From NCBI GenBank assembly GCA_964599625.1, contig CAZRGC010000003.1, forward strand, positions 97,759-161,758: DNA of 64,000 nucleotides, written 5' to 3'. The notes under the pieces are model-generated. The model made no database searches, was not told where the DNA came from, and worked only from the letters and a program-made list of their open reading frames with translations. A program made the position numbers and the translations under genes. The DNA comes from an uncultured Gammaproteobacteria bacterium (lineage in GTDB: Bacteria > Patescibacteriota > Microgenomatia > UBA8517). This document shows, piece by piece, positions 7,650 to 57,251 of the stretch; positions within the stretch are counted from its first letter, which is position 1; each line of letters starts with the position of its first letter.

Positions 7650-9377
7650 ATGAAAACATCTTCGCAAAGCAAAAACATGAATGAAAAAAATATAAAAACC
7701 AATCCCTCGATAATGACAACAAAAGTTACAGGTGGAATGAAATTTATAGCACTTTCGGGAACAACAGGTGTTACAGAGAATCTTTATGTATATGAATACG
7801 GTAACGACATGGTTGTTGTTGACTGTGGTGTCGGGTTTCCCGAATCTGAAATGTTTGGGGTGGACCTGGTTATACCTGATTTTTCTTATATAAAACAAAA
7901 CGCCCACAAATTAAGAGGTGTTCTTATTTCTCATGGACACGAAGACCACATTGGAGGTTTACCTTTCCTGCTAAAGGAAGTAAAAACCACAGTGTATGCC
8001 AGTAAACTTGTTGCCGGTTTTATTCAGGAGAAACTTGATGATGCAGAGGTCCAGGGGAATATTAAAGTCTTTGACCCCGAACGTGATGTTTTGACACTTG
8101 GAGTTTTTAAAGTTACACCTTTCAGAGTTGCCCACTCGGTTCCCGATGGGGTTGGTTTTTGTATCGACACACCCGAAGGAAAAATGTTCCATGTGCCGGA
8201 TTACAAATTTGATTGGACACCTGTAGATGGTAGGCCGTTTGACGTCGCAAAACTTTCTGTTCTGGCATCTGGTGGTGCATTGGCCTTGGCATCGGATTCT
8301 CTGGGGTCTACTTCACCTGGATACACTGAAAGCGAGAGAGAGATAGAAGGCAGAATTGAACCTATTGTGCGGGACGCCAAAGGTAAGGTGTACCTGACCA
8401 CTATCTCGTCAAATATAAGTCGTATGCAGCAAACTCTTAATGTCGCAGCAAAAACAGGAAGAAAAGTATGTTTCATTGGCAGATCTATCGTCAGAAAGTC
8501 CGAAATAGCCAGAGATCTGGGTTTTATGTCGCAGGGGAACGGAATAATTGTTCAACCCAAACAAGCCGCCAAACTTCCACCCAATAAAGTTCTTTATATT
8601 ATTTCAGGTAGTTACGGTCAACCCGGAAGTGCACTATACAGGCTTTGTCTGGGCGACCACGACTTCTTGTCTATTGGCAGTAATGACGTGGTTATATTTT
8701 CGGCAGATCCTGCTCCTCCAGGCAGTAAGGCAAATGTTGATTTTTTGGTAGACAAATTAATCGAGTCTGATGTGGATGTGCATTATTACGACATGCAGGA
8801 AGATCTTCATGTTTCGGGACATGGATGTATCAAAGACATCGAAATGCTTTTTGCTTTAGTTAGACCAAAGTATTTTATACCAATTGGTGGAACAGTAAGA
8901 CACAATAGAGCATATGGACTTATTGCTCAAAGTATGGGTGCCGAAGAAAAAGAAATCCTTGCACTTTTGCCTGGCGACATTGTTGAGTTTAATTCTGGAA
9001 TAGCCAGAAGGTCCGGAAAAATTCAGGTTAAAGAGGTGCTGGTTGACGGATTAGGCATTGGAGATGTTGGCAATTCGGTATTAAGGGATAGACACATCCT
9101 TTCTAAAGAGGGAGTTGTTATTGCAATGTGCCAATTTGATCGCAACAACGGTGTTCTTTCCGCACTCCCCGAAATGATAAGCCGAGGTTTTGTTTTTGAA
9201 CAAAAATATGGCCGGCTTTTGGATGAAGCGTCACGGGACCTTGCAAAGGTCCTGGATAGAAAAAAGAATGTTAACGCGCTTTTTATACGAAACACTACGA
9301 TTGATTTTCTCGAAAAATATTTCTTCCAAAAAACAGGCAGGCGCCCAATGATACTTCCGTTGGTTGTGGAGACTTGA
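7650..9377 (+). CDS. rnj: ribonuclease J
   Basis: Metallo-beta-lactamase motif HGHEDHIGG, a beta-CASP region (LHVSGHG) and 575 aa length. The exact start is uncertain. Confidence 0.85.
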   Translation: MKTSSQSKNMNEKNIKTNPSIMTTKVTGGMKFIALSGTTGVTENLYVYEYGNDMVVVDCGVGFPESEMFGVDLVIPDFSYIKQNAHKLRGVLISHGHEDHIGGLPFLLKEVKTTVYASKLVAGFIQEKLDDAEVQGNIKVFDPERDVLTLGVFKVTPFRVAHSVPDGVGFCIDTPEGKMFHVPDYKFDWTPVDGRPFDVAKLSVLASGGALALASDSLGSTSPGYTESEREIEGRIEPIVRDAKGKVYLTTISSNISRMQQTLNVAAKTGRKVCFIGRSIVRKSEIARDLGFMSQGNGIIVQPKQAAKLPPNKVLYIISGSYGQPGSALYRLCLGDHDFLSIGSNDVVIFSADPAPPGSKANVDFLVDKLIESDVDVHYYDMQEDLHVSGHGCIKDIEMLFALVRPKYFIPIGGTVRHNRAYGLIAQSMGAEEKEILALLPGDIVEFNSGIARRSGKIQVKEVLVDGLGIGDVGNSVLRDRHILSKEGVVIAMCQFDRNNGVLSALPEMISRGFVFEQKYGRLLDEASRDLAKVLDRKKNVNALFIRNTTIDFLEKYFFQKTGRRPMILPLVVET

Positions 9378-9456: not shown

Positions 9457-11592
9457 ATGAAGCAAAGAAAAAGAATAACAAAACGGGGTTTCAAATTAAA
9501 ACTTAAGAAGGAAACTACTTTTTCTATTGCTCAGATTTTTTTCTTTATTTTTTCTGCTCTTATTTTGGTCTCTTTTTCAAAACAGGGCGCAATTCTTCGG
9601 GGTTTTAATGACTTTTTAACAAATTATTTTGGATGGTCTGCTGTGTTTTTGCCATTTATAACCCTGTCGTTTGCGTTTCTGGTGTCCAAAATTAAATTTC
9701 CTTTGGGTCAACCCAATGTTGTTGTCGGCGGACTTCTTTTTTTTGTTTCTGTGATGGCTTTGGGTAAGGCGGGGGCTTTGGGAGTGGGCTCCTGGGAGAT
9801 GATTGCCAGTTTGATATCTGGGTTTGGGGCTGGATTGGTTTTTTTCTGCTCGGCCTTTATTGGGTTAATAGTTCTTTTTAACACTTCAGTAGATGTTGTT
9901 TTTAAATATTTACAGGGACTTTTCAAGACAGCAAAAGGATATGTAAAAAGCGATACACAATTTAAAGTTAGCGGTTCCGGCATTAGTAAACCCTTAAGCA
10001 CGGGTCCTTTGAAAGTTGTTGGTGGTGGCGCTTCCCCAGCCATTAATTCGAATACTACGGTTACTCCTACAAAAACTACTGTACCCGCAGCCGTTCCTCA
10101 TGCTGCGCTTGAACAAAAGTTGGTGAGCAATGTTCCAGGCGAAGAGATGATTTGGAAATATCCGTCGGTAAATCTTCTTAGTGAAACGGACAATGGTAAA
10201 GCAGAGCGAGGAGATATCAAAGGCAACGCTGATACTATCGAGAAAACCCTGGACTCTTTTGGAATATCTGCGCGTGTTGTGGAAGTAAACCTTGGCCCTG
10301 CTGTCACACAGTATGCCCTAGAGGTGGCACTTGGAACCAAGCTTTCCAAAATAACCTCACTCGAACGTGATTTGGCATTGGCACTTTCCGCACCAACAGG
10401 AACTATAAGAATAGAGGCTCCAATTCCTGGGCGTAATTTAGTGGGAATTGAGCTTCCAAACCGATCTGCCGAGTTTGTGAGTCTAAGAAAAATGATGTCT
10501 TCTGATGAAATGCTGGGTCATAAATCTAAGCTCGCGGTTGCATTGGGTTTTGATGTTTCGGGTAAGCCTATTGTTGCAGATGTTGCCAGAATGCCCCATG
10601 TGCTTATTGCAGGACAAACAGGATCCGGAAAGTCTGTTTGTATAAACACTTTCCTTGCATCAATTCTTTTCAGAGCAGCACCAACCGAAGTAAAAATGAT
10701 ATTGGTTGACCCTAAGCGAGTAGAAATGACTGGTTACAATGGAATTCCCCATTTGTTGACCCCTGTTATAGTTGAGCCGGATAAAGTCATAAACGCTCTT
10801 AATTGGGTAATGGGGGAAATGGATAGAAGATACAAACAATTTGCCGAAGCAGGCGCCAGAAACATTGAGGCTTATAACGAGATGTCCGGTTTTCAAGCCC
10901 TGCCTTATATAGTTGTAGTTATCGACGAACTTGCTGATATTATGCTTTTTTCACCTGTTCAAGTTGAGGACGCCATTACCAGGATTGCACAAATGAGCCG
11001 TGCAACCGGGATACACATGGTCCTGGCAACTCAAAGGCCGTCTGTGGATGTCATTACCGGACTCATTAAAGCAAATGTACCAAGCAGGATTGCATTTGCC
11101 GTGTCGTCCCAAATTGACTCTCGTGTTATTTTGGATACACAAGGAGCAGAAAAGCTTTTGGGTAAAGGTGATATGCTTTATCTACCTCCGGAACAAGCTA
11201 AGCCGTTGAGAATTCAAGGGGCTTTCGTGAATGACAAAGAAATAAACGCTTTGGTATCGTTTATTAAAAATCAGGGAATTGAGCCGCACTACACCGAAGG
11301 TGTCACAACAAGTGTTAAGCCGGGCACTGTTGTAGTTCCGGGAGTTGAAGGAGGGGTTGATGATATGTTCAAAGAAGCGGTAAGGGTGGTGTGTCAATTT
11401 GATCGAGCAAGCGCGTCACTTTTGCAAAGAAAACTTTCAATTGGTTATTCAAGGGCAGCAAGAGTTATAGATCAGTTGGAAGCTGCGGGGGTGGTGGGCC
11501 CCTCTGATGGAACAAGTAAACCCAGAGAAGTATTGGTGCAAAATGCGGAAGAATTCCTTGCCTCATTCGGTGCTCAGCCAGCCCAAGGTTAG
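9457..11592 (+). CDS. ftsK: DNA translocase FtsK/SpoIIIE
   Basis: N-terminal TM helices, Walker A GQTGSGKSV, VVVIDELADIM, and a C-terminal gamma wHTH (LLQRKLSIGYSRAARVIDQLE). Confidence 0.9.
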   Translation: MKQRKRITKRGFKLKLKKETTFSIAQIFFFIFSALILVSFSKQGAILRGFNDFLTNYFGWSAVFLPFITLSFAFLVSKIKFPLGQPNVVVGGLLFFVSVMALGKAGALGVGSWEMIASLISGFGAGLVFFCSAFIGLIVLFNTSVDVVFKYLQGLFKTAKGYVKSDTQFKVSGSGISKPLSTGPLKVVGGGASPAINSNTTVTPTKTTVPAAVPHAALEQKLVSNVPGEEMIWKYPSVNLLSETDNGKAERGDIKGNADTIEKTLDSFGISARVVEVNLGPAVTQYALEVALGTKLSKITSLERDLALALSAPTGTIRIEAPIPGRNLVGIELPNRSAEFVSLRKMMSSDEMLGHKSKLAVALGFDVSGKPIVADVARMPHVLIAGQTGSGKSVCINTFLASILFRAAPTEVKMILVDPKRVEMTGYNGIPHLLTPVIVEPDKVINALNWVMGEMDRRYKQFAEAGARNIEAYNEMSGFQALPYIVVVIDELADIMLFSPVQVEDAITRIAQMSRATGIHMVLATQRPSVDVITGLIKANVPSRIAFAVSSQIDSRVILDTQGAEKLLGKGDMLYLPPEQAKPLRIQGAFVNDKEINALVSFIKNQGIEPHYTEGVTTSVKPGTVVVPGVEGGVDDMFKEAVRVVCQFDRASASLLQRKLSIGYSRAARVIDQLEAAGVVGPSDGTSKPREVLVQNAEEFLASFGAQPAQG

Positions 11593-12582: not shown

Positions 12583-12936
12583 TTGAACATAAGATTACCC
12601 TACTGGATTACAGGGATTGCCTGGATCCTTATATTTATCTACCTGGGATACAACAACATCAACTACCTTTCCGGGCGCCCTAACACATATTTTGGCGGTG
12701 TCGAGGCCATGATTCTCGTCATGGGTGGTGTTGGTCTTGTTTTTTCGGTCTTTCAATTTAAGTATGGGCTTTTGGGAGTTGGCATCCTGATGCTGGTGTT
12801 CGCTGTATGTGGCGGGCTTGCGACAATTATCACATCGGTGAACCTGGAATACATGGTGCAGTATTTGAAAGGTTTGTCCTTTCTGGCTCACACCTCCCTT
12901 CCCAATTTTGTGGTTCTTTTTGACAAAGAAAGTTAA
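12583..12936 (+). CDS. small multi-pass membrane protein (TTG start)
   Basis: 117 aa with 3-4 hydrophobic segments. AGAGGAG lies about 6-7 nt upstream of the TTG. An intrinsic terminator follows. Confidence 0.5.
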   Translation: MNIRLPYWITGIAWILIFIYLGYNNINYLSGRPNTYFGGVEAMILVMGGVGLVFSVFQFKYGLLGVGILMLVFAVCGGLATIITSVNLEYMVQYLKGLSFLAHTSLPNFVVLFDKES

Positions 12937-27731: not shown

Positions 27732-28511
27732 ATGTCTGGCCCCGATTCCCCTTTTCACTCAGACTCAAGTGTTTTCGAAACAAAAAACTCTCATATAGAC
27801 ACCCCTTTAGAGACAGTAATAAAAGCGGATTATTGGGCCAATTCACATTATCCTCAAATGTGGATAGCAAAACGCCTGGTTACAACGCACGCAGCTTTGG
27901 AACAGGTGCTTGCGGGAAAGTTGTTGTGGAGTGATTTTTCCACATCACAACTCCCCGACGTTTTTATTGAACCCCATATGAAAGAAAAGGCAAATAAAGC
28001 ACATGCTGCATATGGGCAACCTGCAATAATGGATCGTGATCTTAACAACCTGTGGAGGTCTGATGTAAGTGATGTATCAAATACACTTTGGAATTTGCTG
28101 CCCGACAAGGGAGACCCGTTGGAAATCCAAGACGTAACAATTGCCAAAGCCTTGAAAGACCCAAAAAATAAACAGTTTTTTGGGTCGTTGTTGGGTGTAT
28201 TGGCGGCAGAGAAGTCGGCCTTGGAAAGCCAGGAGTGCCTGGAGATATCAAAAGACCTGCGTGAGTCATTAAGAGACCTTCATCATAAAAAATTTGACCG
28301 CGGGTATAGTTTTTCTTTAAAGGAACAAGCTGACTTAAGGGTCAGATGGAACGCTATTTCAGACCGTCTCGAGTCTGTTTTGCAGCGGGAGCTTTCAAAG
28401 GCCAATCAAAAAGCAAAACTGATGCTTAACGATAGCCAATTGGAGTTTCTAACGCATCAAATCCATGTTGGTTCGAGAGTTGTGGCCAGTACGCCGATGG
28501 AGTCTTTTTGA
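27732..28511 (+). CDS. hypothetical protein inserted between rpsG and fusA
   Basis: 259-aa ORF, predicted helical, with no motif recognised. Sampled 60-nt lines are 50-57% G+C, above the flanking genes. Confidence 0.55.
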   Translation: MSGPDSPFHSDSSVFETKNSHIDTPLETVIKADYWANSHYPQMWIAKRLVTTHAALEQVLAGKLLWSDFSTSQLPDVFIEPHMKEKANKAHAAYGQPAIMDRDLNNLWRSDVSDVSNTLWNLLPDKGDPLEIQDVTIAKALKDPKNKQFFGSLLGVLAAEKSALESQECLEISKDLRESLRDLHHKKFDRGYSFSLKEQADLRVRWNAISDRLESVLQRELSKANQKAKLMLNDSQLEFLTHQIHVGSRVVASTPMESF

Positions 28512-30805: not shown

Positions 30806-31600
30806 ATGAATTTCTTTAAGAAAGTTGCTTCTAGTGTTTATTCCCCGGAGTTCTATTCCCAAATACCCAAAATGACACTTGGTTCTGTGTTGGGTTATTT
30901 TTTCTTGCTGCTTCTAGTGGTCGAACTTGTCATGTTTGGCAAAAGCATGCCGGAGTTTATGTTTGGTTTCTCAGGAAAGATAAAATCTACAATAAGCGAG
31001 GTTATCGACACTTATCCCAGTAATTTGGTTTTGACAATCAAAGATGGAGCGCTTTCCACCAATGTTAAGGAGCCTTACTACCTTATGGATAAAACCAACA
31101 ACAAGTTCGCGGTTATAGACACAAAAACTGCATACTCTGCCGATCAATTTAAAAAGTACAACGTACCGGTCTGGGTTACCAAAGATACTGTTTTTTACCA
31201 AGACAGCGACCAAATCAAGAGCAATAGTTTTGTAGAGATGAAAGATATGGTGGTAAACAAAGAACTTGTAAACAGTTTTTCTGCCAAAATATCTCCCTGG
31301 ATTCCATATTTTGGCCCTGTTGTTATGATTTTTGCACTCGTAACTCTTTACGCCCTCCAATCTTTCAGACTGGTTTATGGGTTTTTCCTTGCACTTTTAA
31401 TTTTGCTGGTTGCCAAAATGACCAAGAAAAGTCTGACGTATAAAGAATCTTACAAAGTAGGGATATTTGCCATGACACTACCCTTTATTTTAGAAGCGCT
31501 TAATACCTATATCGGTTGGAAGGCTTTTCCGTTCACTTTTACTATAATTGCACTTATTGTTGTTGGCGTAAATTTTGCAGGATCCAACTCGAAGAAGTAG
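30806..31600 (+). CDS. DUF1189-like polytopic membrane protein
   Basis: 264 aa. The N-terminus MNFFKKVASSVYSPEFYSQIPKMTLGSVLGYFFLLLLV follows the DUF1189 pattern. C-terminal TM helices are present. Confidence 0.45.
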   Translation: MNFFKKVASSVYSPEFYSQIPKMTLGSVLGYFFLLLLVVELVMFGKSMPEFMFGFSGKIKSTISEVIDTYPSNLVLTIKDGALSTNVKEPYYLMDKTNNKFAVIDTKTAYSADQFKKYNVPVWVTKDTVFYQDSDQIKSNSFVEMKDMVVNKELVNSFSAKISPWIPYFGPVVMIFALVTLYALQSFRLVYGFFLALLILLVAKMTKKSLTYKESYKVGIFAMTLPFILEALNTYIGWKAFPFTFTIIALIVVGVNFAGSNSKK

Positions 31601-33291: not shown

Positions 33292-33318
33292 GGCCTCTTG
33301 TTCGACCAAACCCCATAG

Positions 33319-33346
33319 TTGGAATAACTGAACTACCTGATATAAT
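33319..33346 (+). promoter_or_regulatory. island promoter P-A (preceded by a CCCATAGTT box)
   Basis: CCCCATAGTTGGAA, with -35 TTGGAA (33319-33324), a 16-nt spacer, then TGA-TATAAT (33341-33346). Confidence 0.55.
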
Positions 33347-33398
33347 GCCAATGTCTGAATTAAGTTAGATCTTTGTACAATCAAAAAGGAATTTGACT

Positions 33399-33701
33399 AT
33401 GGATCCGATAAGAGTAGTTGTTGCAGTGGATGGCGACAAGGCAAAGTTCCACACCACTTTTCCGTTGGACGTGTATTTACCAGGACGACAAAAAAGGTCT
33501 GAAAAAGGCCAGGAGCTGGTAAACAAGTTGAAAGAGGTCAAGGGTATTAAAAACGAAGAGTTGGATATCTGGATCTACGAATATGAAATTTCGGCCAATA
33601 AGCTACACGCCTTTAAATGGAAGGATGAGGTCGCACCTGCTGTAGTTGAGGTTCTCAAGACCTTTTACAATCTCGGCACAGTCGAAATTGTATACGAATA
33701 A
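33399..33701 (+). CDS. island ORF A, orphan protein (100 aa); weak Nfu_N-like pattern
   Basis: ATG at 33399 with AAAGGAA 7 nt upstream. No family recognised. The EKGQELVNKLKEVKGI...WKDEVAPAVVEVL pattern is shared with ORF D. Confidence 0.6.
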   Translation: MDPIRVVVAVDGDKAKFHTTFPLDVYLPGRQKRSEKGQELVNKLKEVKGIKNEELDIWIYEYEISANKLHAFKWKDEVAPAVVEVLKTFYNLGTVEIVYE

Positions 33702-33735
33702 TACCCTGTCCGAATATCTGTTGTGTTAGTTTTTG

Positions 33736-33771
33736 CTCCGCTTTGTGGAAATTTCCCGGGCGGAGTTTTTT
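33736..33771 (+). terminator. island terminator, junction copy alpha
   Basis: CTCCGC (33736-33741) pairs with GCGGAG (33760-33765). The inner palindrome is GGAAATTTCC. T6 follows at 33766-33771. Confidence 0.8.
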
Positions 33772-33793
33772 GTGGCCAACATTAGTCCCATAG

Positions 33794-33823
33794 TTGGATT
33801 TATGGTGGTTAATCTGCTAGAAT
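33794..33823 (+). promoter_or_regulatory. island promoter P-B
   Basis: CCCATAGTTGGAT, with -35 TTGGAT (33794-33799), an 18-nt spacer, then TGC-TAGAAT (33818-33823). Confidence 0.55.
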
Positions 33824-33866
33824 CCGCTAGCACGTTGAATTATTACAGAACGTCCTTGGAGGAACA

Positions 33867-35015
33867 ATGATTCTTGGACTGAAATTAACTGTCGAAAACG
33901 ACGATATTGTCGACATTGGCGGAGATTTGTACGTCAAAAACTCCAAAGCCATGAAGCGTCTTCACAGGGAGCTTCGCTACCTGGGATACCAAATCGACAA
34001 CTTGCGGCACGATAAATACCGCTTGGACAAGGGAGCCACCCCGCGCGAAATGGAAAAAGGTGGTTGGTCGCTTTGGTTTGCCAAGTTACCCAATATCAGA
34101 CGTGGTGTCTGTGGAAGCTGTGGAGCAACCATTTCCACTCTCGGCATTCAGTCACACGGCCACAAATGCGAGAGGTGCGGCGAAGTGACCTACTGGGAAA
34201 TGGTGGAAGGATCAGTAATCCGGTTCGTCTTTTTGCAAAAAGAGGGCCGTGGAATGTGGGATCCCGAGCTTAAGATGAAAGTGCACCATTGGGATACGCG
34301 TGAAGGGCTTTTATATCTTTACCCGGAAGCCTTGGAAGGTGGCCTTTCGACTGTGACGGGAGATACAGCACGGCAGTACTTGGGCAATAACCACGAAAAG
34401 TGGAATGTAGTCACGATCGATGGCCAAAAAATTATCGTGATCAAGTACCCCAAGCAGTGGCGGCGCGATACGGCTGTTATCGAACCTTATGAGATTTACG
34501 GTCATCAGTGGAATCACAAGATCGTCAAAATCTACAAAGGTAAACATTACAGTGACTGGGACCGGCTCCCTGTTCCCGAGACATTTTCTATCTACGAAAC
34601 CTGGCACTGGGACAAGCTTGTGGCTTCGCCAACATTGCACAGGCGTGTATTGCAGGCTGTTCACAACACCGATGACAAGGGTTGGCACTACCAAGACGGT
34701 CGTCCCTGGTTTAGAGAAGGAAGCTGGAAGGGCATGGCAAAGTTTATTCGCCATTTTACAGCCCTTGATGCTGATGCCTTTGACCGAGCCTGGCCACGTT
34801 TCAGAAACGACGGTCCCGGCGGGATCGACGACTTGGCACACTTCTGTCACCCCAAAGCCATCACTCGTGATGAGCCAAACATAGGTAATGTTCTTGTTGC
34901 CATGGGGAAACGCATGGAAAATAAGTCTCTCACGCGCGATGAGATCGAAGCAGCCAAACGCGGCTTGAGCGATCCATTGACGGGTGATTTTTTACGTTCC
35001 CTGCGTAAGCGTTAG
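33867..35015 (+). CDS. island ORF B, orphan Trp-rich protein with a CxxC..CxxC zinc ribbon (382 aa)
   Basis: GGAGG lies 4 nt upstream of the ATG. It contains CGSCGATISTLGIQSHGHKCERCG and many Trp residues (WHW, WDxxW). No family recognised. Confidence 0.7.
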   Translation: MILGLKLTVENDDIVDIGGDLYVKNSKAMKRLHRELRYLGYQIDNLRHDKYRLDKGATPREMEKGGWSLWFAKLPNIRRGVCGSCGATISTLGIQSHGHKCERCGEVTYWEMVEGSVIRFVFLQKEGRGMWDPELKMKVHHWDTREGLLYLYPEALEGGLSTVTGDTARQYLGNNHEKWNVVTIDGQKIIVIKYPKQWRRDTAVIEPYEIYGHQWNHKIVKIYKGKHYSDWDRLPVPETFSIYETWHWDKLVASPTLHRRVLQAVHNTDDKGWHYQDGRPWFREGSWKGMAKFIRHFTALDADAFDRAWPRFRNDGPGGIDDLAHFCHPKAITRDEPNIGNVLVAMGKRMENKSLTRDEIEAAKRGLSDPLTGDFLRSLRKR

Positions 35016-35028
35016 TTTTGGAGTCTCA

Positions 35029-35064
35029 CTCCGCCTTGTGGAAATTTCCCGGGCGGAGTTTTTT
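35029..35064 (+). terminator. island terminator, junction copy beta
   Basis: CTCCGC (35029-35034) pairs with GCGGAG (35053-35058). T6 follows at 35059-35064. It is near-identical to copies alpha and gamma. Confidence 0.8.
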
Positions 35065-35087
35065 GTGGCTAAAATAAGCCCCATAGT

Positions 35088-35116
35088 TTGACATAACTTT
35101 GAACCTTTGATATATT
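35088..35116 (+). promoter_or_regulatory. island promoter P-C
   Basis: CCCATAGTTTGACA, with -35 TTGACA (35088-35093), a 17-nt spacer, then TGA-TATATT (35111-35116). Confidence 0.65.
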
Positions 35117-35156
35117 CACAAGGTTTATTTGCACATTATGGTTAAAAGGAGAGACT

Positions 35157-35660
35157 ATGGGAATTACCCATGCAGAGGGTGTTGACTTGCAAGAGTGGGC
35201 GAATGCTCACAAACCGGATGATGACTTGATTTACAGGGATGGTTATTGGCATCAAATCATCTTTGTCCGGGATCGCTTGCCACAGCCGCTTTTTGGCTCA
35301 TACGAAGAGTACAAAGCCAATCCGGTACGCGTGGTGGGTGATCATACAAGCAAATCAGTACTCCTTCCTGTTTACAGTATCAAATTTGCTCCTCTCGAAA
35401 TTCGGATGCGTTACAACTTTTACGACTGGAAAGTGAGTGTGGTATCTCAAGTTCCCATCAGGTCGAACTTTTACCCGTTCCTTTTTAGAGATGAAGCTGT
35501 GCACCCGGTTTATTTTGAGGGTTTTACCAATGACTGGGTTTTTGGCTCCTACTCTGCCGACAACACCAAATTTTCTGTTGAAATTAGCAACGAACACATG
35601 TTGTTCGCTTTCATGGCTATTTTAGCGGGTGATTTGGGCTTGGGAGGCAATAAGAAGTAG
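35157..35660 (+). CDS. island ORF C, orphan aromatic-rich protein (167 aa)
   Basis: AAGGAGAG lies 3 nt upstream of the ATG. No TM segment or signal peptide, and no family recognised. Confidence 0.65.
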   Translation: MGITHAEGVDLQEWANAHKPDDDLIYRDGYWHQIIFVRDRLPQPLFGSYEEYKANPVRVVGDHTSKSVLLPVYSIKFAPLEIRMRYNFYDWKVSVVSQVPIRSNFYPFLFRDEAVHPVYFEGFTNDWVFGSYSADNTKFSVEISNEHMLFAFMAILAGDLGLGGNKK

Positions 35661-35672
35661 TTTGGAGCTCAA

Positions 35673-35708
35673 CTCCGCTTTGTGGAAATTTCCCGAGCGG
35701 AGTTTTTT
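35673..35708 (+). terminator. island terminator, junction copy gamma
   Basis: CTCCGC (35673-35678) pairs with GCGGAG (35697-35702). T6 follows at 35703-35708. Confidence 0.8.
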
Positions 35709-35731
35709 GTGGCAAAAACAAGTCCCATAGT

Positions 35732-35761
35732 TTGACAAAGCCTCGAATATGGTTTTATAAT
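35732..35761 (+). promoter_or_regulatory. island promoter P-D
   Basis: CCCATAGTTTGACA, with -35 TTGACA (35732-35737), an 18-nt spacer, then TATAAT (35756-35761). Confidence 0.65.
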
Positions 35762-35805
35762 CATCTGTTGTCAGAAATTTGTACTTTACAAAAAATAGCT
35801 TGGCA

Positions 35806-35846
35806 GGCAGCTTTTTACCCGTAAAATTTATGGTTGAAAAGCTGCC
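35806..35846 (+). promoter_or_regulatory. 10-bp perfect stem in the ~155-nt 5' UTR of ORF D
   Basis: GGCAGCTTTT (35806-35815) pairs with AAAAGCTGCC (35837-35846), with a 21-nt loop. Confidence 0.5.
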
Positions 35847-35922
35847 TACGGATGATAGTGAGGCGTATGGGAGCACTCCTAAAACAAAAACCAAATAAAA
35901 ATTAGAAAGTAACAGGAGCAAA

Positions 35923-36300
35923 ATGTCTCAATCTCAAAAGCGCGTTTCCGAACGCGAGGTACCCGAAGTCAATCCCAACAAGAGGTTTTTCCCAGACTTT
36001 CCTCTTTGCAACGACACGGCTACCCACACAAGCTATTCATACAGGAACAAGAAGGATGTCGGTGAAAAGGGTGTCGCCTTGGTAGAGGCTGTTTTGGCAA
36101 TCCACGGCGTGATCGATCTGACGATCTCAAAGAATGAACTTCGGGTCGTCAAACAACCTGCCCACACCTGGGAAGAGGTTACACCTTTGATCCACAATGC
36201 TTTCAGGCATGTTTACGGCGACGATATCAAATTTATCGGAGAAAACAAGGCTATTTTGGCCTACAGACGTCTCCGAGTTGCCATGAACGTGGCTAAGTAA
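35923..36300 (+). CDS. island ORF D, orphan protein (125 aa); weak Nfu_N-like pattern
   Basis: AGGAG lies 4 nt upstream of the ATG. EKGVALVEAVLAIHGVIDLTISKNELRVVKQPAHTWEEVTPLI resembles the Nfu/NifU N-terminal domain text and ORF A. Confidence 0.65.
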   Translation: MSQSQKRVSEREVPEVNPNKRFFPDFPLCNDTATHTSYSYRNKKDVGEKGVALVEAVLAIHGVIDLTISKNELRVVKQPAHTWEEVTPLIHNAFRHVYGDDIKFIGENKAILAYRRLRVAMNVAK

Positions 36301-36315
36301 CATCAATGGCCTTCC

Positions 36316-36347
36316 GGCCCAAATCTCACAAGGTTTGGGCCTTTTTT
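36316..36347 (+). terminator. strong rho-independent terminator closing the island
   Basis: GGCCCAAATCT (36316-36326) pairs with AGGTTTGGGCC (36331-36341), loop CACA. T6 follows, and the TTTTTTGTGG tail is shared with the junction repeats. Confidence 0.85.
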
Positions 36348-36364
36348 GTGGGTTTGACCCGTGC

Positions 36365-36393
36365 TTGCGGCGTTTTGGTATATCTGATATAAT
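36365..36393 (+). promoter_or_regulatory. promoter re-starting transcription toward rplC
   Basis: TTGCGG (36365-36370), a 17-nt spacer, then TGA-TATAAT (36388-36393). Confidence 0.45.
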
Positions 36394-36465
36394 TCCGAAT
36401 AACAAATATGGTGGTTACAATGTTTGCTCAACCACGCTAAGTTAGTCTTTGGCAGATGCCTCACT

Positions 36466-36489
36466 GGCGCCTTCCGAAGGCGCTTTTTT
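36466..36489 (+). terminator. terminator-like hairpin inside the rplC leader (attenuator or end of a ~90-nt small RNA)
   Basis: GCGCCTT (36467-36473) pairs with AAGGCGC (36477-36483). T6 follows at 36484-36489, 50 nt upstream of the rplC ATG. Confidence 0.5.
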
Positions 36490-36539
36490 GTTTAATGTCC
36501 TTCGACTCGCAAGAGCTCGCTCTAGGATCCAAAACAAAT

Positions 36540-44710: not shown

Positions 44711-45118
44711 ATGAGCAAATTACCAAAAGTTGTAACAAAGTCAAAAAAGAGAATCGGTAGAGGTTTTGGAACCGGTAAAGGTGGACACACCACAAACCGC
44801 GGACAGAAGGGGCAAAAATCCCGTGGTTCCATTGGAGTTCTTTTCGAAGGAATGAAAGTCAAGAAGTCACTTCTTAAAAGACTTCCATTGCAGCGCGGAA
44901 AAGGAAAGTTCAAAGCCAACGGAAAACCGGTTATTGTTACCCTTACCGACCTGGATATTCTCCCAACCGGTAGTGAAATTACTTTAGATCTTTTGATCAA
45001 AGAGAACTTGGTCGACCCTATTTTAGGCCGAAAATTCGGAGTAAAAGTCTTGGGAGGAGGAAAATCTACCAAGAAATTTACTTTCAAAGTCCCAACTTCC
45101 AAATCTGTAGCCAAATAA
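44711..45118 (+). CDS. rplO: 50S ribosomal protein L15
   Basis: KRIGRGFGTGKGGHTTNRGQKGQKSR. It starts 2 nt after the rpsE stop, so there is no rpmD between them. Confidence 0.94.
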   Translation: MSKLPKVVTKSKKRIGRGFGTGKGGHTTNRGQKGQKSRGSIGVLFEGMKVKKSLLKRLPLQRGKGKFKANGKPVIVTLTDLDILPTGSEITLDLLIKENLVDPILGRKFGVKVLGGGKSTKKFTFKVPTSKSVAK

Positions 45119-45122
45119 ATAT

Positions 45123-45599
45123 ATGACAGAAAGTCCAACACCTGTTGGAGAAGAAGCAGAAAAACTACAAAAAACATCACTTTTAGTGATGTATTCACGC
45201 CAAGATATGGCAGATACAGCCCTTGAGGTAATAAAAGAACTTAGGGAAGCAGGTCTTAATGTCATCGATATAAACGATAAGATTGCAGATGGCTCGTGGG
45301 TGGGTGAGTCGGATAAAATATTGGAAAATACCCCAGCAGTTCTTGTTATTCCATCAAAATCCATAAAAGAAGATGGTTTGGTTAAGGACGCAGTTTACCG
45401 TGCCGACATGCTAAGGGTAGAAAAAAGAAAGAGAATCGTTCCAATATTTTTTCAGGCTAATGCAAATGTTTCGATAGGAGGCCTTGGCAGCCTTGCCGGA
45501 ATAAATTGGGACGGTGAGACAGAAGGGATTCAAAATTTTGATAAGACTGCAGCTTTCGGCCACCTCAAAACTTTTGTCGCCCAAAATACTAATTCATAA
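45123..45599 (+). CDS. TIR-like domain protein (tentative)
   Basis: SLLVMYSRQDMADTALEVIKELREAGLNVIDINDKIADGSW..AVLVIPSKSI..RIVPIFF follows the bacterial TIR_2 layout (hSYSxxD, G..W, hhhhS, hhPhhh). The conserved catalytic Glu is not evident. Confidence 0.4.
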   Translation: MTESPTPVGEEAEKLQKTSLLVMYSRQDMADTALEVIKELREAGLNVIDINDKIADGSWVGESDKILENTPAVLVIPSKSIKEDGLVKDAVYRADMLRVEKRKRIVPIFFQANANVSIGGLGSLAGINWDGETEGIQNFDKTAAFGHLKTFVAQNTNS

Positions 45600-45601
45600 A
45601 C

Positions 45602-46030
45602 ATGGAAACAATTAAACCTAACGGGTTTTTGACAAGCTTCGAGTTTGAGGGATTAAAACTTCCTGTGGAATACGTGAGAACAGATCAAGTTTGTGAGGGT
45701 GTAACTTGCGACGTTTACAAATTTTGGGGAGACAAAAAGAAGGACTTGGCGATAATAACAATACAACCTGACGCCAAAACACCACCCCAAAAAGTTTTGT
45801 CGGGAGAAAAAACAATCGAAGGATATATTTCGGGATCGGGTGTATTTACAGTGAAAAAGGACGACGGGGGTGAAGAAAGAATATTGGTAGAAGATAAGCC
45901 CACAGAGTACTTTTCAATTCAAGTAAACGTAGGGGACACAATGCAATGGAAAGCTTCGGAAGATTCTATTCTTACTGTTTTTGAAGTTTGCTACCCCCCA
46001 TACGAAGACGGCAGGTTTCAAAATCTTTAG
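45602..46030 (+). CDS. cupin-fold protein (tentative)
   Basis: 142 aa, beta-rich. GYISGSGVFTV...VNVGDTMQW...LTVFEVCYPP resembles the two cupin motifs. Confidence 0.4.
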   Translation: METIKPNGFLTSFEFEGLKLPVEYVRTDQVCEGVTCDVYKFWGDKKKDLAIITIQPDAKTPPQKVLSGEKTIEGYISGSGVFTVKKDDGGEERILVEDKPTEYFSIQVNVGDTMQWKASEDSILTVFEVCYPPYEDGRFQNL

Positions 46031-46045
46031 TGTTATACTTCCAAT

Positions 46046-46489
46046 ATGTCCCGCGATAGATTCAGACTTCTTGCAGCGTGTTACTTATTGCCAATAAAGG
46101 GGAAGAAAGTTCTTTTGTCCCGCCGTTTTAACACTGGCTGGAAGGATGGTTGGTATTCCTTGATTGCAGGGCATTTGGATGGCAACGAATCTGTAAGCGA
46201 CTCAATGATTCGTGAAGCGAAAGAGGAGTCTGGTATTGAAATTGCCAAAAAAGACTTGGTTCCTTTAACCTCCGTTCACCACAAAACAGAAGACTCAGAA
46301 TATGTGGACTTTTTCTTCGCAGTAAAAAAGTGGAAAGGTGAACCGCAAATCAAGGAGCCCAACAAGTGTGACGATATGTCCTGGTTTCCAATAGACAAAC
46401 TTCCGGAAAAATTACTTCCACACGTTAAGCAAATAATTCAAAACCTGGACTCCAATGTTCCTTTTTTTGAACACGGATGGAACAAATAA
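46046..46489 (+). CDS. NUDIX hydrolase
   Basis: Complete Nudix box GHLDGNESVSDSMIREAKEESGI (Gx5Ex7REx2EExGU). Confidence 0.85.
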   Translation: MSRDRFRLLAACYLLPIKGKKVLLSRRFNTGWKDGWYSLIAGHLDGNESVSDSMIREAKEESGIEIAKKDLVPLTSVHHKTEDSEYVDFFFAVKKWKGEPQIKEPNKCDDMSWFPIDKLPEKLLPHVKQIIQNLDSNVPFFEHGWNK

Positions 46490-46504
46490 CTGCTAAACTA
46501 TTTT

Positions 46505-47476
46505 GTGGCTCAAAAAGAAGACGACTCCTACCAAAAATATCTTGAAGACAAACACTTGGCATTTGCAACGCCCGAAAGTCTGGTATCGTCTATGGTAAAA
46601 AAGGCAACGGGATCAGAACCCTTTTCTGTCGAAAAGTTGATTCAGGGTGAAGTGAACGAGGTTTATGATGTGGAGGCTGGTGGTCAAAATGTAATAGTAA
46701 GAATTTCCCGACAAGGACCGGAAAATTTTGAAACCGAAGAAACTGTAATACGCCTCGCTTTGCAAGCAGGTGTACCCGCTCCCAAAGTTCTTCTTTTGGA
46801 ATCTGCCTCAACCGAAACCGAAGAATTGACCTTTTGTATAGAAGAAAAGATTGAAGGAAAGCCATTGAAAGAATTACTAAAAACTCTGGACGCAGAAACT
46901 CTCAAGGCAATTCTGATTCAGTCGGGCGAGATATTATCCCGTATCCATTCATTGGAAACGGACAGATTTGGGCCCTTGGATAGGCAGGTCTTTTATCCTT
47001 CATGGACAGAATATTTATTCAGGAAGGAAGAAAATAAACGTGAGATAATTGAGTATGGCTCTAAAGTGGGACTCCTGCCCGGTGTTATAGATAAAGCCTT
47101 TTCTATACAAAGGAAAAACTCAGGAATTTTGGAAATACAAATCCCCTATATTCTGCACGGCGATTTTAGTCCCAAACACATTCTCACGAATGGAAAAACA
47201 GTCACTGGAATAATAGATTTTGAAGACGCCAAAGGAGGCGATCCGGTGAGAGATATTGCTTGGATGAACTTTTTTTATGGCGATTCGGTAAATCTTGAGT
47301 GGTTTTTAGAAGGATACGGAAGGGAAAAAACAGGAATGGACTTTGATATAAAAATGAGACTTTTGAAAGTTAACTTGGGACTGGACCTGTTGGATTATTA
47401 CGGATCAGAAGGTAATATTTCAGGACTTAAATACTCGAAACGTAAATTGGAGGAAGAGATGGAATTTTTCAAATGA
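46505..47476 (+). CDS. APH/choline-kinase-family phosphotransferase (GTG start)
   Basis: Kinase-like N-lobe (VYDVEAGGQNVIVRI), catalytic loop ILHGDFSPKHIL, and metal-binding IIDFEDA. Confidence 0.75.
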   Translation: MAQKEDDSYQKYLEDKHLAFATPESLVSSMVKKATGSEPFSVEKLIQGEVNEVYDVEAGGQNVIVRISRQGPENFETEETVIRLALQAGVPAPKVLLLESASTETEELTFCIEEKIEGKPLKELLKTLDAETLKAILIQSGEILSRIHSLETDRFGPLDRQVFYPSWTEYLFRKEENKREIIEYGSKVGLLPGVIDKAFSIQRKNSGILEIQIPYILHGDFSPKHILTNGKTVTGIIDFEDAKGGDPVRDIAWMNFFYGDSVNLEWFLEGYGREKTGMDFDIKMRLLKVNLGLDLLDYYGSEGNISGLKYSKRKLEEEMEFFK

Positions 47477-47483
47477 CCCGACA

Positions 47484-48065
47484 ATGAATTCAAACACAAT
47501 AGTAATTTTGGGAACCCTGATTGGTGCAATTGGCTCGATCTTTTATCTTGTCGACGTTGTTAAGGGAAAAATAAAACCCAATCGGGTTTCTTTTATTCTT
47601 TGGTCACTCCCACCATTGATATCTGCATACGCAAATATTAAAAGTGGCGGTGGAATTGAATCTTTAATGACTTTTAGTGTTGGTTTTTTTCCACTGCTTA
47701 TATTTTTGGCAACTTTTCTCAACAAAAAATCCGTTTGGAAACTTACCAAATTTGATTTTGTTTGCGGCGCACTTTCACTTTTGGGATTCCTGCTTTGGCA
47801 GGTAACAAAAGAAGGATATTTGGCAATAACTTTTAGTATAGTTTCCGATTTTTTGGCTGGAATTCCCACCATAACAAAAACTTACAAACACCCAGAAACG
47901 GAACTGGCTTGGCCCTGGTTGATGCCGGTCTTGGGAGAAATTCTTACACTTTCCACACTTGGGGATATTACTTATCTCAACTCAGGTTTCATGATTTACG
48001 TAACTTTGTATAACACAGTCATTTTTCTTTTGGCGCAGTATAAAATCGGAAAGATATGGAAATAA
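47484..48065 (+). CDS. polytopic membrane protein, unknown function
   Basis: 193 aa with about six hydrophobic segments. Confidence 0.55.
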   Translation: MNSNTIVILGTLIGAIGSIFYLVDVVKGKIKPNRVSFILWSLPPLISAYANIKSGGGIESLMTFSVGFFPLLIFLATFLNKKSVWKLTKFDFVCGALSLLGFLLWQVTKEGYLAITFSIVSDFLAGIPTITKTYKHPETELAWPWLMPVLGEILTLSTLGDITYLNSGFMIYVTLYNTVIFLLAQYKIGKIWK

Positions 48066-48562
48066 TTAAACTACCTGTTTCAGAGTGGAAAAGTTATAAA
48101 GCAATAAGGCTTCGAGCTCTCAAGGAAGACCCTCAGGCATTTGGAGCCTCATACGACGATGCGGTCAAATTTGACGAGTCCGAATGGAGACGCAGGCTTG
48201 AAAATGCCGAAAATTCGGACAGAAGTTGGTTATGGTTTGCACAAGAAAACCAGAAAATTGTAGGCCTTATTGGGGCATATATGGAAAAAGGTGCAACAAA
48301 TGAGGCAACTATAGTTTCTGTTTTTGTTCCCAAGGAAGAAAGAGGGAAAGGAATATCGAGCCTTTTGATGGATAAGATGATATCCGAACTTTCAGCTAAA
48401 CCATATCTCAAAAAAATTAATTTGACTGTGAACAAAGACCAAGTAGCGGCCGTAAATCTTTATACAAAGTTTGGTTTCGTAAAAGTCGGTGAGCAAAATT
48501 TTAAAATGGGAAACGGTCAGAAGGCTGTGGAATTTGTTATGGAAAGACAAATTAGCACTTAA
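48056..48562 (+). CDS. GNAT family N-acetyltransferase
   Basis: Motif A VFVPKEERGKGISSLLM, and a C-terminal NLYTKFGF. Confidence 0.8.
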   Translation: MEIIKLPVSEWKSYKAIRLRALKEDPQAFGASYDDAVKFDESEWRRRLENAENSDRSWLWFAQENQKIVGLIGAYMEKGATNEATIVSVFVPKEERGKGISSLLMDKMISELSAKPYLKKINLTVNKDQVAAVNLYTKFGFVKVGEQNFKMGNGQKAVEFVMERQIST

Positions 48563-57180: not shown

Positions 57181-57251
57181 CGGGGTGTAGTTTACCGGTA
57201 GAATGGGCGCATGGGGTGCGTCCGGACTGAGTTCAATTCTCAGCACCCCGA
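57181..57251 (+). tRNA. tRNA-Pro (anticodon GGG), no encoded CCA
   Basis: Hand-folded cloverleaf. The acceptor is CGGGGTG/CACCCCG and U8 is present. The D-loop carries GG. The anticodon stem is GGCGC/GCGTC with loop AU-GGG-GU. The T arm is CTGAG-TTCAATT-CTCAG. The discriminator is A. Confidence 0.75.

Follow-up and report, generated by a model that had tools for sequence, protein, structure and literature searches.

The window analysed here, a 64,000-nucleotide stretch of a CPR/Patescibacteria (Microgenomates-like) genome without uL30, carries an island of four ORFs (A to D) that fills a gap of 3249 nt between rpsJ and rplC and is adjoined by tuf and rpsJ on one side and by rplC and rplD on the other, with no phage genes nearby. 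The adjacency of rpsJ and rplC is among the most conserved in bacteria; the gap measured 0-154 nt in 77 other contigs, and its median was 39 nt over all 81 contigs measured, four slot-bearing contigs included. No integrase, transposase, tRNA or flanking direct repeat was found at the island, whose four ORFs were domain-searched; the nearest tRNA lies at 57181, and the sole 'flanking repeat' is an extended -10 box, CTGATATAAT, common to two promoters. Of the usual marks of a genomic island, deviant composition and absence from or difference among relatives were observed, and mobility hallmarks at the site were not. Please refer to Table 1 for the coordinates of all features.

Table 1. Features of the rpsJ-rplC island and of the adjoining host boundary (window positions; promoters and terminators are predicted).
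Feature	Position	Strand	Details
Whole island	33292-36352	+	rpsJ stop (33291) to rplC promoter; ORFs at 33399-36300
Cassette A promoter	33312-33346	+	motif CCCATAGTTGGA, -35 TTGGAA, 16-nt spacer, TG-extended TATAAT
SD of ORF A	33385-33391	+	AAAGGAA, 7 nt before ATG 33399; -5.6 kcal/mol, weakest of four
ORF A	33399-33701	+	100 aa, near-orphan
Repeat module copy 1	33724-33810	+	terminator hairpin 33735-33766 + T-run, then ORF B promoter motif CCCATAGTTGGA 33787-33798; ORF B -10 TAGAAT, 33818-33823, just past the module
SD of ORF B	33858-33862	+	GGAGG, 4 nt before ATG 33867; -9.3 kcal/mol
ORF B	33867-35015	+	382 aa; Cys/His zinc ribbon (C82, C85, C101, C104)
Repeat module copy 2 and ORF C promoter	35017-35116	+	module 35017-35103: terminator 35028-35059 + T-run, motif 35080-35091; promoter TTGACA-17-TATATT, 35088-35116
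SD of ORF C	35146-35153	+	AAGGAGAG, 3 nt before 35157; -8.7 kcal/mol
ORF C	35157-35660	+	167 aa; family common to CPR genomes and phages
Repeat module copy 3 and ORF D promoter	35661-35761	+	module 35661-35747: terminator ~35671-35704 + T-run, motif 35724-35735; consensus promoter TTGACA-18-TATAAT, 35732-35761
ORF D leader hairpin	35805-35847	+	strong, z -3.5, in ~155-nt 5' leader
SD of ORF D	35914-35918	+	AGGAG, 4 nt before 35923; -6.6 kcal/mol
ORF D	35923-36300	+	125 aa, weak Nfu_N-like match
Cassette D terminator	36316-36348	+	11-bp stem + T6, -18.2 kcal/mol; right island end
Host rplC promoter and conserved leader	36365-36539	+	TTGCGG-17-TG-extended TATAAT; terminator-like hairpin 36466-36490 within leader; host boundary, outside island

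The island is made up of four monocistronic units, each comprising a predicted promoter with the motif CCCATAGYTKGA, a Shine-Dalgarno (SD) site, one ORF and a predicted intrinsic terminator. The motif is present in four copies, against 0.49 expected by chance, and the four putative sigma-70-like promoters display 10-12 of 12 matches or a TG-extended -10. The four candidate terminators, each a hairpin followed by a U-run, have calculated energies of -16 to -19 kcal/mol. An 87-nt terminator-promoter module was identified three times in the island with 75-85% identity between copies, the hairpin of copy 1 having an energy of -16.4 kcal/mol (z -2.7). The putative promoter of cassette A begins 20 nt past the rpsJ stop, with no terminator between them.

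The proteins were compared with sequence, domain and structure collections. ORF A gave 3 weak matches only among 1.84 billion representatives, its exact protein being present on 9 contigs. ORF B, modelled by AF2 with a pLDDT of 93, has homologues in more than 100 clusters at 35-69% identity, from CPR wherever the source is named; the motifs YQDGR, RHFTxLDAD and DGPGGIDD are conserved in the alignment, and no match was found in Pfam, PHROG, PADLOC, PDB or BFVD. ORF C likewise gave no structural match in the PDB, and ORFs B and C represent two abundant, structurally novel families common to CPR bacteria and phages. ORF D matched the Nfu/NifU N-terminal domain PF08712 weakly (24.7 bits, Pfam cut-off 27), an assignment also given by precomputed collection annotation for ORF D and its one homologue, which is 62% identical and lies in the same rpsJ-rplC slot of lineage L033, where the hairpin of the ORF D leader is kept as well. 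Apart from this sub-threshold match, no significant PHROG or Pfam match was obtained for ORFs A to D, and a search of PADLOC-DB 2.0 with these and six cassette proteins of relatives returned no defence match save one 15-bit DrmE fragment.

An earlier note on this DNA had placed SD sites before ORFs A to D and described the flanking host genes as lacking them, with rplN and the TTG-start gene at 12583 as exceptions; all four sites were found where it had put them, and both exceptions are real. Duplex energies were calculated with an assumed canonical anti-SD, ACCUCCUUA, as the window contains no 16S gene. On this basis the mean for 70 host genes was -1.6 kcal/mol, and 7 of the 70 reached -6 kcal/mol or lower, equal to the 10.5% found at random window positions, whereas three of the four island genes did so (Fisher p=0.007). 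Upstream of host genes the sequence is rich in A and depleted in G, GGAG being observed 5 times against 6.1 expected. Retention of the anti-SD has been reported for most CPR (PMC9297842).

The island also differs from the host in codon usage and composition. GC3 was 0.495, 0.56, 0.49 and 0.57 for ORFs A, B, C and D respectively, against 0.370±0.045 for the 70 flanking genes (z 2.8-4.4), and the contrast held when Met and Trp codons were left out (z 2.8-4.7). The CGN arginine preference described in the earlier note was borne out by CGN:AGR counts of 36:15 in the island vs 279:722 in the host (Fisher p=9e-10). The island lies outside the host distribution both by a CAI-like index based on host codon usage, in which ORFs A, B and D fall under all 70 host genes, and by tetranucleotide distance, which is maximal at 33501-36500 (z=5.1), first of 123 3-kb segments in the 64 kb. 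Total G+C is only 45.9% in the island vs 41.6% in the rest of the window; the range of 50-55% noted previously applies to ORF B only, and no more than 31% of the island's 60-nt lines reach 50%. The compositional signal is carried by third codon positions. The highly expressed host genes, tuf and those for ribosomal proteins, have low GC3.

The same slot was examined in relatives. It contains A, B, C and D in the window; 139aa, TM61, B and TM80 in L007 (gap 2389 nt); TM61, B, TM80 and 158aa in L135; 156aa, 128aa, C, DUF7919, TM61 and 293aa in L029 (gap 4053 nt); and 126aa, 109aa and D in L033. ORF B is thus held in three lineages and ORFs C and D in two each, and the slot is a long-lived swap site, variable across five lineages. 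The nearest outgroup, L036 (rpsJ 81% identical), is island-free, its gap of 152 nt containing a promoter and leader of its own, analogous to the rplC promoter and leader conserved in the window, L007, L029 and L135. All five arrays carry the promoter motif CCCATAGYTKGA or a close variant, with no further occurrence elsewhere in the window or among the 35 loci scanned, and L029 has its own terminator module, repeated three times. Cassettes in the other slots display the SD AAGGAG(G) and a GC3 of 0.45-0.67 vs 0.26-0.43 for their hosts. Phage core genes are present in none of the five arrays.

Elsewhere, ORF B homologues were found between VanW and Lon, and, in other CPR genomes, alongside large serine recombinases and a LexA-like repressor. 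A terminator-like GC-rich hairpin and T-run directly follow ORF B in about 13 of the 18 non-viral loci, as judged by eye. A further homologue, carried by the 327-kb IMG/VR viral contig L034, looks native there and fits the composition of its neighbours (z 1.5), which have an AAGGAG SD, 76% CGN and a GC3 of 0.47. ORF C homologues were identified in 16 contigs from IMG/VR, and two phage-like contigs (L116, in which 82% of genes have an SD, and L118) also contain them. SD-led initiation and CGN arginine are common in the predicted phage contigs L034, L116 and L118; however, the fraction of neighbouring genes preceded by an SD was 0.00-0.24 in 8 of 15 ORF C-bearing viral contigs, indicating that SD use is true of some phage contigs only. 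ORF C exceeded its neighbours in GC3 in 14 of 15 viral contigs (mean z 1.6). No exact match to the window's terminator module was found in IMG/VR, nor was a donor phage. ORF B identity roughly tracks host taxonomy (Microgenomates 52-69%, Parcubacteria 43-50%, Saccharibacteria 40-43%), a pattern as compatible with long residence in CPR as with mobility.

Divergence within the slot bears on the age of the signature. The slot copies of ORF B are 64-69% identical at the amino acid level, compared with 70% for rplC, 65% for rplD and 78% for rplB, and the slot copies of B, C and D are about as diverged as the neighbouring ribosomal genes. Fourfold-degenerate sites are saturated between cassette-sharing lineages, in host genes and cassettes alike. 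The GC3 of ORF B nevertheless lies above that of its own host by about 0.2 in the window and L007 and by about 0.08 in L135, and it exceeded that of neighbouring genes in 15 of 18 non-viral loci (mean +0.10, Wilcoxon p=4e-4). These loci span many CPR phyla, and most of the homologues in them have kept a strong SD. ORF B GC3 also appears to climb with host GC3, as read from the values and not from a computed correlation. Given the saturation and the family-wide excess of GC3 and SD, the signature is old and belongs to the family rather than tracing one recent event, and the proposal in the earlier note of a recent, unameliorated transfer is not supported.

These results are best explained by a long-lived, variable array of self-contained, moron-like cassettes fed by a mobile pool of phages and integrative elements, a reading to which we assign a probability of roughly 0.55. 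A foreign, phage-linked origin of the cassettes is supported: of the foreign donor previously suggested, the non-host composition and signals stand, and a phage-linked source is plausible from the L034 contig, the viral contigs with ORF C and the serine recombinases, while the single recent event is not supported. The array would sit between two host transcription units, one ending with tuf-rpsJ and one starting at the rplC promoter and leader, and each cassette would be an independent unit like a phage 'moron', with a sigma-70-type promoter, the clade-specific CCCATAGYTKGA, a strong SD, one ORF and a terminator, the promoters and terminators presumably working in vivo. Because each unit would have a terminator and rplC its own promoter and leader, cassettes could be added, lost or swapped without upsetting ribosomal-protein expression, and the slot would for this reason be a safe harbour. 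The cassette genes would be drawn from a pool shared with phages and integrative elements, whose SD and CGN habits would explain the foreign look beside A-rich, SD-free host leaders. Turnover may proceed by homologous recombination between the conserved flanks (rpsJ and the rplC leader) and the repeated modules, and the GC3 offset is probably upheld not by selection but by ongoing exchange with the mobile pool. As neither integrase nor transposase, tRNA or flanking direct repeat is present at the island, we infer the insertion mechanism and do not see it. The GC3 excess of ORF C in viral contigs and the trend of ORF B with host GC3 hint at a gene-intrinsic cause that the mobile pool does not fully cover.

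The same two observations, taken with a signature that outlives synonymous saturation, could be accommodated if the cassettes were long-resident host genes, whose SD, CGN and GC3 were kept by a selected expression regime (translation only when the anti-SD is free or the tRNA pool shifts, for example) or by GC-biased gene conversion at a site of frequent recombination. The offset appears to climb with host GC3 instead of following a fixed donor value, the promoter motif common to the cassettes suggests shared regulation, and the anti-SD is kept in most CPR (PMC9297842) though host genes here ignore it. However, the families have a patchy distribution, with members in settings unrelated to one another (VanW/Lon, recombinase islands, phage contigs), slot content is unlike among close relatives, and the low GC3 of tuf and ribosomal-protein genes argues that expression level alone does not raise GC3, and we regard this explanation as rather unlikely. 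It is improbable that a 3-kb block was acquired in a single recent transfer from a G+C-richer, SD-dependent bacterium or phage: the strong GC3, codon, k-mer and SD contrast and the lack of an island in L036 would agree with such an event, but ORFs A, C and D accompany B in 0 of the 28 loci compared and A to D match unrelated cassettes across lineages, so that the block is not one unit, and copies of B, C and D as diverged as ribosomal genes lie in the same slot of saturated lineages, the signature being found with ORF B homologues in a variety of contexts and in many CPR phyla.

Although ORFs B and C have relatives in phages and integrative elements, the remnant of a prophage or integrative element decayed in place is very improbable, since no integrase, repressor, structural, lysis or replication gene, att-like repeat or tRNA lies at the site and five lineages have small arrays in the slot, none with phage core genes. 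We give little credence to the slot being a dedicated platform for genes with phage-type expression signals, namely a special promoter motif, CGN-rich codons and SD-led starts in a translatome otherwise blind to the SD. Such genes would be made efficiently chiefly during infection, once transcription or translation had been remodelled by the phage (through its sigma factor, its ribosomal proteins or its tRNAs, for instance), and the slot would be an infection-sensing defence or superinfection-exclusion array of captured phage genes placed within the ribosomal operon; if true, it would account for a foreign signature that was kept and not ameliorated. The repeat modules are break points of short Logan contigs, as might be expected in a chimeric or misjoined metagenome assembly, but ORF B was recovered with the same flanking modules in independent assemblies from several sequencing runs, and four relatives have rpsJ-cassettes-rplC or cassettes-rplC on single contigs, which leaves a chimera with next to no probability.

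With rpsJ-rplC made a swap site by this clade, the ribosomal super-operon can host flexible content in streamlined CPR genomes. The equation of atypical composition with recent transfer can fail, as the signature here outlasts complete synonymous turnover, and its persistence points to continued exchange with the phage pool or to selection. An SD-less core beside SD-using accessory genes in one genome makes anti-SD use in CPR testable gene by gene, and the ORF B and ORF C families are targets for functional work.

Several known systems resemble the variable cassette array in part. In bacterial pangenomes, genomic islets or hot spots hold variable accessory or defence genes between conserved core genes; they have in common with the island fixed core flanks, variable cargo, atypical composition and no obligatory integrase, and differ in that the island is flanked by rpsJ and rplC, its cargo has no PADLOC defence match and each gene is transcriptionally insulated, as predicted from its signals. 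Integron arrays likewise consist of tandem single-gene cassettes with a repeated structured element between them and a content that varies among relatives. However, no IntI was found among the genes adjoining the array (tuf, rpsJ, rplC, rplD), the island repeat is, judged from structure, a terminator, T-run and promoter rather than an attC, and integron cassettes are usually promoterless whereas the island cassettes would carry their own promoters. Phage morons, first described for HK97/HK022, come with a promoter and a terminator of their own and a deviant GC (PMC3594210), and are single accessory genes that lie as independent units between genes adjacent in relatives and spread horizontally, all as in the island. 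Its cassettes have a putative promoter and terminator each and a GC unlike that of their neighbours; they lie outside any phage or prophage, in the chromosome between ribosomal-protein genes, whereas morons are prophage-borne, and four of them make up an array with homogenised modules and a promoter motif conserved across lineages. For translation, the closest parallel is the SD-poor Bacteroidetes, in which, in the account of Jha et al. (2021) as cited in PMC9723584, the anti-SD has been retained but is sequestered, and an SD is kept by few genes; a core without SD enrichment, A-rich leaders and a strong-SD minority are shared with the host here. The two belong to different phyla, and the SD minority here comprises accessory and mobile genes instead of a regulatory gene such as rpsU.

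The elements on which the earlier note based its contrast between island and host genes were all found where it had placed them. ORFs B, C and D carry the Shine-Dalgarno (SD) sites GGAGG, AAGGAGAG and AGGAG, 3-4 nt 5' of their ATGs, and AAAGGAA lies 7 nt 5' of the ATG of ORF A. Assuming a canonical anti-SD, as there is no rRNA within the window, duplex energies of -5.6, -9.3, -8.7 and -6.6 kcal/mol were calculated for the leaders of A, B, C and D, compared with a mean of -1.6 kcal/mol for 70 host genes, whose starts were taken from ORF lists; -6 kcal/mol was reached by 10% of these genes versus 10.5% of random window positions. The host leaders are rich in A and poor in G over positions -12 to -1 and display no enrichment of GGAG (5 observed versus 6.1 expected), and translation of the host core thus looks independent of SD sites. 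Arginine is encoded by 36 CGN and 15 AGR codons in the island, compared with 279 and 722 in the host genes (p=9e-10), and third-position G+C (GC3) is 0.49-0.57 in the island genes versus 0.370±0.045 in the host (z 2.8-4.4). A Met/Trp-codon artefact was ruled out, as this excess was unchanged after removal of these codons. On a host-referenced codon index A, B and D score lower than all host genes, and 33501-36500 is the most deviant 3-kb segment in tetranucleotide usage (z 5.1). The G+C that had been claimed needs correction: overall the island has just 45.9% G+C, with at least 50% in ORF B alone. The contrast is located at third codon positions. The only host-region gene with the island's signature is a TTG-start gene of 117 aa (GC3 0.547, GAGGAG SD site, no Pfam match), which may be another single foreign cassette.

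Judging from its repeats and signals, the island is best described as four putative monocistronic units and not as a block. The motif CCCATAGTTKGA of the CCCATAGYTKGA promoters (CCCATAG promoters) occurs in four exact copies versus 0.49 expected by chance, and elsewhere in the 64 kb there is none except one chance-like match with one mismatch. An 87-nt module is present three times in copies that are 75-85% identical; its first part is a hairpin, CTCCGCYTTGTGGAAATTTCCCGRGCGGAG, followed by T6 and folding at -16 to -19 kcal/mol, and its second part carries the motif CCCATAGTTKGA, overlapping the -35 box of a sigma-70-like predicted promoter. The fourth copy of the promoter motif begins 20 nt 3' of the rpsJ stop codon. 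ORF D has a terminator different from the module and a leader of ~155 nt with a strong hairpin, which is kept in the ORF D cassette of the relative L033 with base changes on both arms and is followed in both by the conserved TGGGAGCA; the hairpin may regulate this gene in cis as an RNA element, the gene product having a weak Nfu_N likeness. To the right of the island, rplC is served by a TG-extended promoter of its own and by a leader carrying a terminator-like hairpin. A minus-strand ORF of 99 aa, which overlaps a terminator and a promoter and is without a significant family match, was taken as spurious. Three short-read Logan contigs of this organism (L001-L003, ~1.32 kb) break exactly at the 87-nt repeats, leaving ORF B alone on the contig, and in practice such assembly breaks may cause arrays of this kind to go under-reported in metagenome bins.

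Coordinates of features in the window and in related contigs
Feature	Contig	Position	Strand
TTG-start gene	window	12583-12936	
str operon, first additional gene	window	27732-28511	
str operon, second additional gene	window	30806-31600	
rpsJ stop	window	33291	
ORF A	window	33399-33701	+
87-nt module, starts	window	33724, 35017, 35661	
ORF B	window	33867-35015	+
Terminator after ORF B (module)	window	35029-35058	
ORF C	window	35157-35660	+
Spurious ORF	window	35622-35921	-
ORF D leader hairpin	window	35805-35847	
ORF D	window	35923-36300	+
ORF D terminator	window	36316-36348	
rplC leader	window	36365-36539	
rplC start	window	36540	
uL15	window	44711-45118	
Second non-ribosomal insert	window	45123-48562	
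secY	window	48607	
TM61-ORF B-TM80 unit	L007	7806-9402	
rplC leader	L007	~9480-9650	
TM61-ORF B-TM80 unit	L135	~380-1972	
rplC leader	L135	~2740-2870	
TM61 before 293-aa gene	L029	3880-4065	
rplC leader	L029	~5130-5285	
ORF D leader hairpin	L033	~1620-1665	
rplC leader	L036	~8310-8450	
Terminator after ORF B	L012	11170-11205	

The rplC leader is conserved in four relatives in the order of a TG-extended -10 promoter, a hairpin GGTGGTT...AACCAC and a GC-rich hairpin with a T-run just 5' of the rplC start. This layout resembles that of an attenuator or an autoregulatory leader of ribosomal-protein genes, and L4-type control would be a guess. No matching Rfam family was found for this leader, and its pattern had no match in JGI metagenome contigs. 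Across the whole window Rfam gave zero matches at the gathering threshold, the island giving only two sub-threshold terminator-like matches.

The core genes of the window are co-directional, from rpoB, rpoC, rpsL, rpsG, fusA, tuf and rpsJ to rplC and through the spc and alpha operons to recA, with ~41.6% G+C. uL15 directly follows rpsE with no uL30 between them, and lack of uL30 is a characteristic feature of Candidate Phyla Radiation (CPR) bacteria (PMC9297842). Among named relatives of the island proteins, the closest comes from a Woesebacteria genome. The gap from rpsJ stop to rplC start spans 3249 nt and holds four plus-strand ORFs. The str operon contains two additional genes of host-like composition, a 259-aa gene of no assigned family between rpsG and fusA and a gene for a DUF1189 membrane protein between fusA and tuf, the latter at the same position in L007. 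A second non-ribosomal insert, between uL15 and secY, encodes a TIR-domain protein, a 142-aa protein, a NUDIX hydrolase, an APH-type kinase, a 193-aa presumed membrane protein without family match and a GNAT acetyltransferase; compared with the island, its GC3 is host-like and SD sites are absent. The gene at ~45123 previously called rplO is the TIR gene of this insert.

The rpsJ-rplC gap measures 0-154 nt in 77 other bacterial metagenome contigs. An rpsJ-based metagenome scan, in which L036 was the one near relative (rpsJ 81% identical), provided the outgroup and the gap-length background; the L036 gap is 152 nt long and already includes the rplC promoter and leader. In closer lineages (rpsJ 88-95% and tuf 95-97% identical to the window) the gap is expanded and its contents differ, indicating a cassette site that varies throughout the clade. 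Every slot-bearing relative has the promoter motif or close variants of it, e.g. CCTATAGCTTGA and CCCTGTAGTTTGA, and cassette genes that are likewise SD-led and GC3-rich compared with ribosomal genes. L029 has a terminator module of its own, repeated three times. The terminator-promoter modules are homogenised within genomes, which suggests that recombination may occur among them. ORF B lies between TM61 and TM80, both small and membrane-protein-like by eye, as a three-gene unit in two relatives; in L029 TM61 precedes a different gene, and the window's ORF B stands alone without either.

Contents of the rpsJ-rplC gap (percentages, identity to the window's protein)
Contig	Genes in order
window	A, B, C, D
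L007	139-aa gene, TM61, ORF B (69%), TM80
L135	TM61, ORF B (64%), TM80, 158-aa gene
L029	156-aa, 128-aa, ORF C (60%), DUF7919, TM61, 293-aa
L033	126-aa, 109-aa, ORF D (62%); contig end before rplC

Searches of A-D and of the relatives' cassette proteins against Pfam, PHROGs and PADLOC gave no usable match and no known family or defence system, and PDB sequence profiles gave no match. ORF B contains several invariant motifs besides a zinc ribbon, and no structural neighbour was found for its confident predicted model; for ORF C, a small alpha/beta protein, the similarities were generic only.

The earlier note had proposed an SD-dependent donor genome or phage, and the distribution of homologues supports an SD-using, phage-linked source. 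Homologues of ORF B form more than 100 clusters, in Woesebacteria, Collierbacteria, Paceibacteria, Magasanikbacteria, Gracilibacteria, Saccharibacteria, Kaiserbacteria and others, with a few distant copies in bins labelled DPANN archaea or Proteobacteria. Its contexts are mutually unrelated: in one complete Woesebacteria chromosome it is flanked by VanW and Lon, and elsewhere it adjoins a large serine recombinase accompanied by LexA-like or Omega-like repressors. A further homologue is found in a 327-kb IMG/VR contig of predicted viral status, among small co-directional genes, including a phage polynucleotide kinase, which have AAGGAG SD sites, 76% CGN and a GC3 of 0.47, values that ORF B fits (z 1.5). 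ORF C has 56 clusters, and its homologues occur in 16 IMG/VR contigs (9-203 kb, viral status predicted) and two phage-like contigs, in one of which 82% of genes are preceded by an SD site. ORF D has a single homologue and ORF A is a near-orphan. The idea that A, C and D move together with B was rejected, since they did not co-occur with it at any other ORF B locus then examined. The donor search found no exact match to the window's terminator module in IMG/VR. In a complete Woesebacteria genome (L012) the loop of the terminator after ORF B, TTTTTGGGAAATTTTCTC, resembles that in the window, TTGTGGAAATTTCCC, which hints that gene and terminator may travel together.

The further claim, that the transfer was too recent for amelioration, fails, as ORF B is as diverged as the host genes between the window and L007 and has kept its offset. 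Fourfold-degenerate sites of tuf, rpsJ, rplC, rplD and rplB are 24-58% identical between the two, essentially saturated; for ORF B the figure is 26%, at an amino acid identity of 69% versus 65-78% for rplC, rplD and rplB. If the common ancestor had ORF B in the slot, its third positions have completely turned over. The GC3 excess of ORF B over the host is ~0.2 in both copies and ~0.08 in that of L135; with neighbours defined by greedy longest-ORF calls, GC3 is higher than that of the neighbours in 15 of 18 non-viral loci (mean +0.10, Wilcoxon p=4e-4), and appears to climb with host GC3, as read off the table with no correlation computed. Most copies have kept a strong SD site, which 0-40% of their neighbours possess. 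ORF C displays the same GC3 offset, even within viral contigs (14 of 15). The signature is thus a lasting property of both gene families. The favoured explanation of how it is upheld is that exchange with a mobile, phage-linked pool has continued; it could also be due to selection favouring a special expression regime or to a recombination hot spot with GC-biased gene conversion.

The initial observation therefore stands, and its interpretation was half right, supported as to the phage-linked source and not as to the recent, unameliorated transfer. Integron, prophage and assembly-chimera readings were rejected. The island is best read as an array of moron-like cassettes that occupies a safe-harbour slot in the ribosomal super-operon of a CPR clade, and it would draw on a gene pool held in common with phages. 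Among known kinds of system, its cassettes are likened to moron units and its slot to core-flanked hot spots, and the array is a variant of both.
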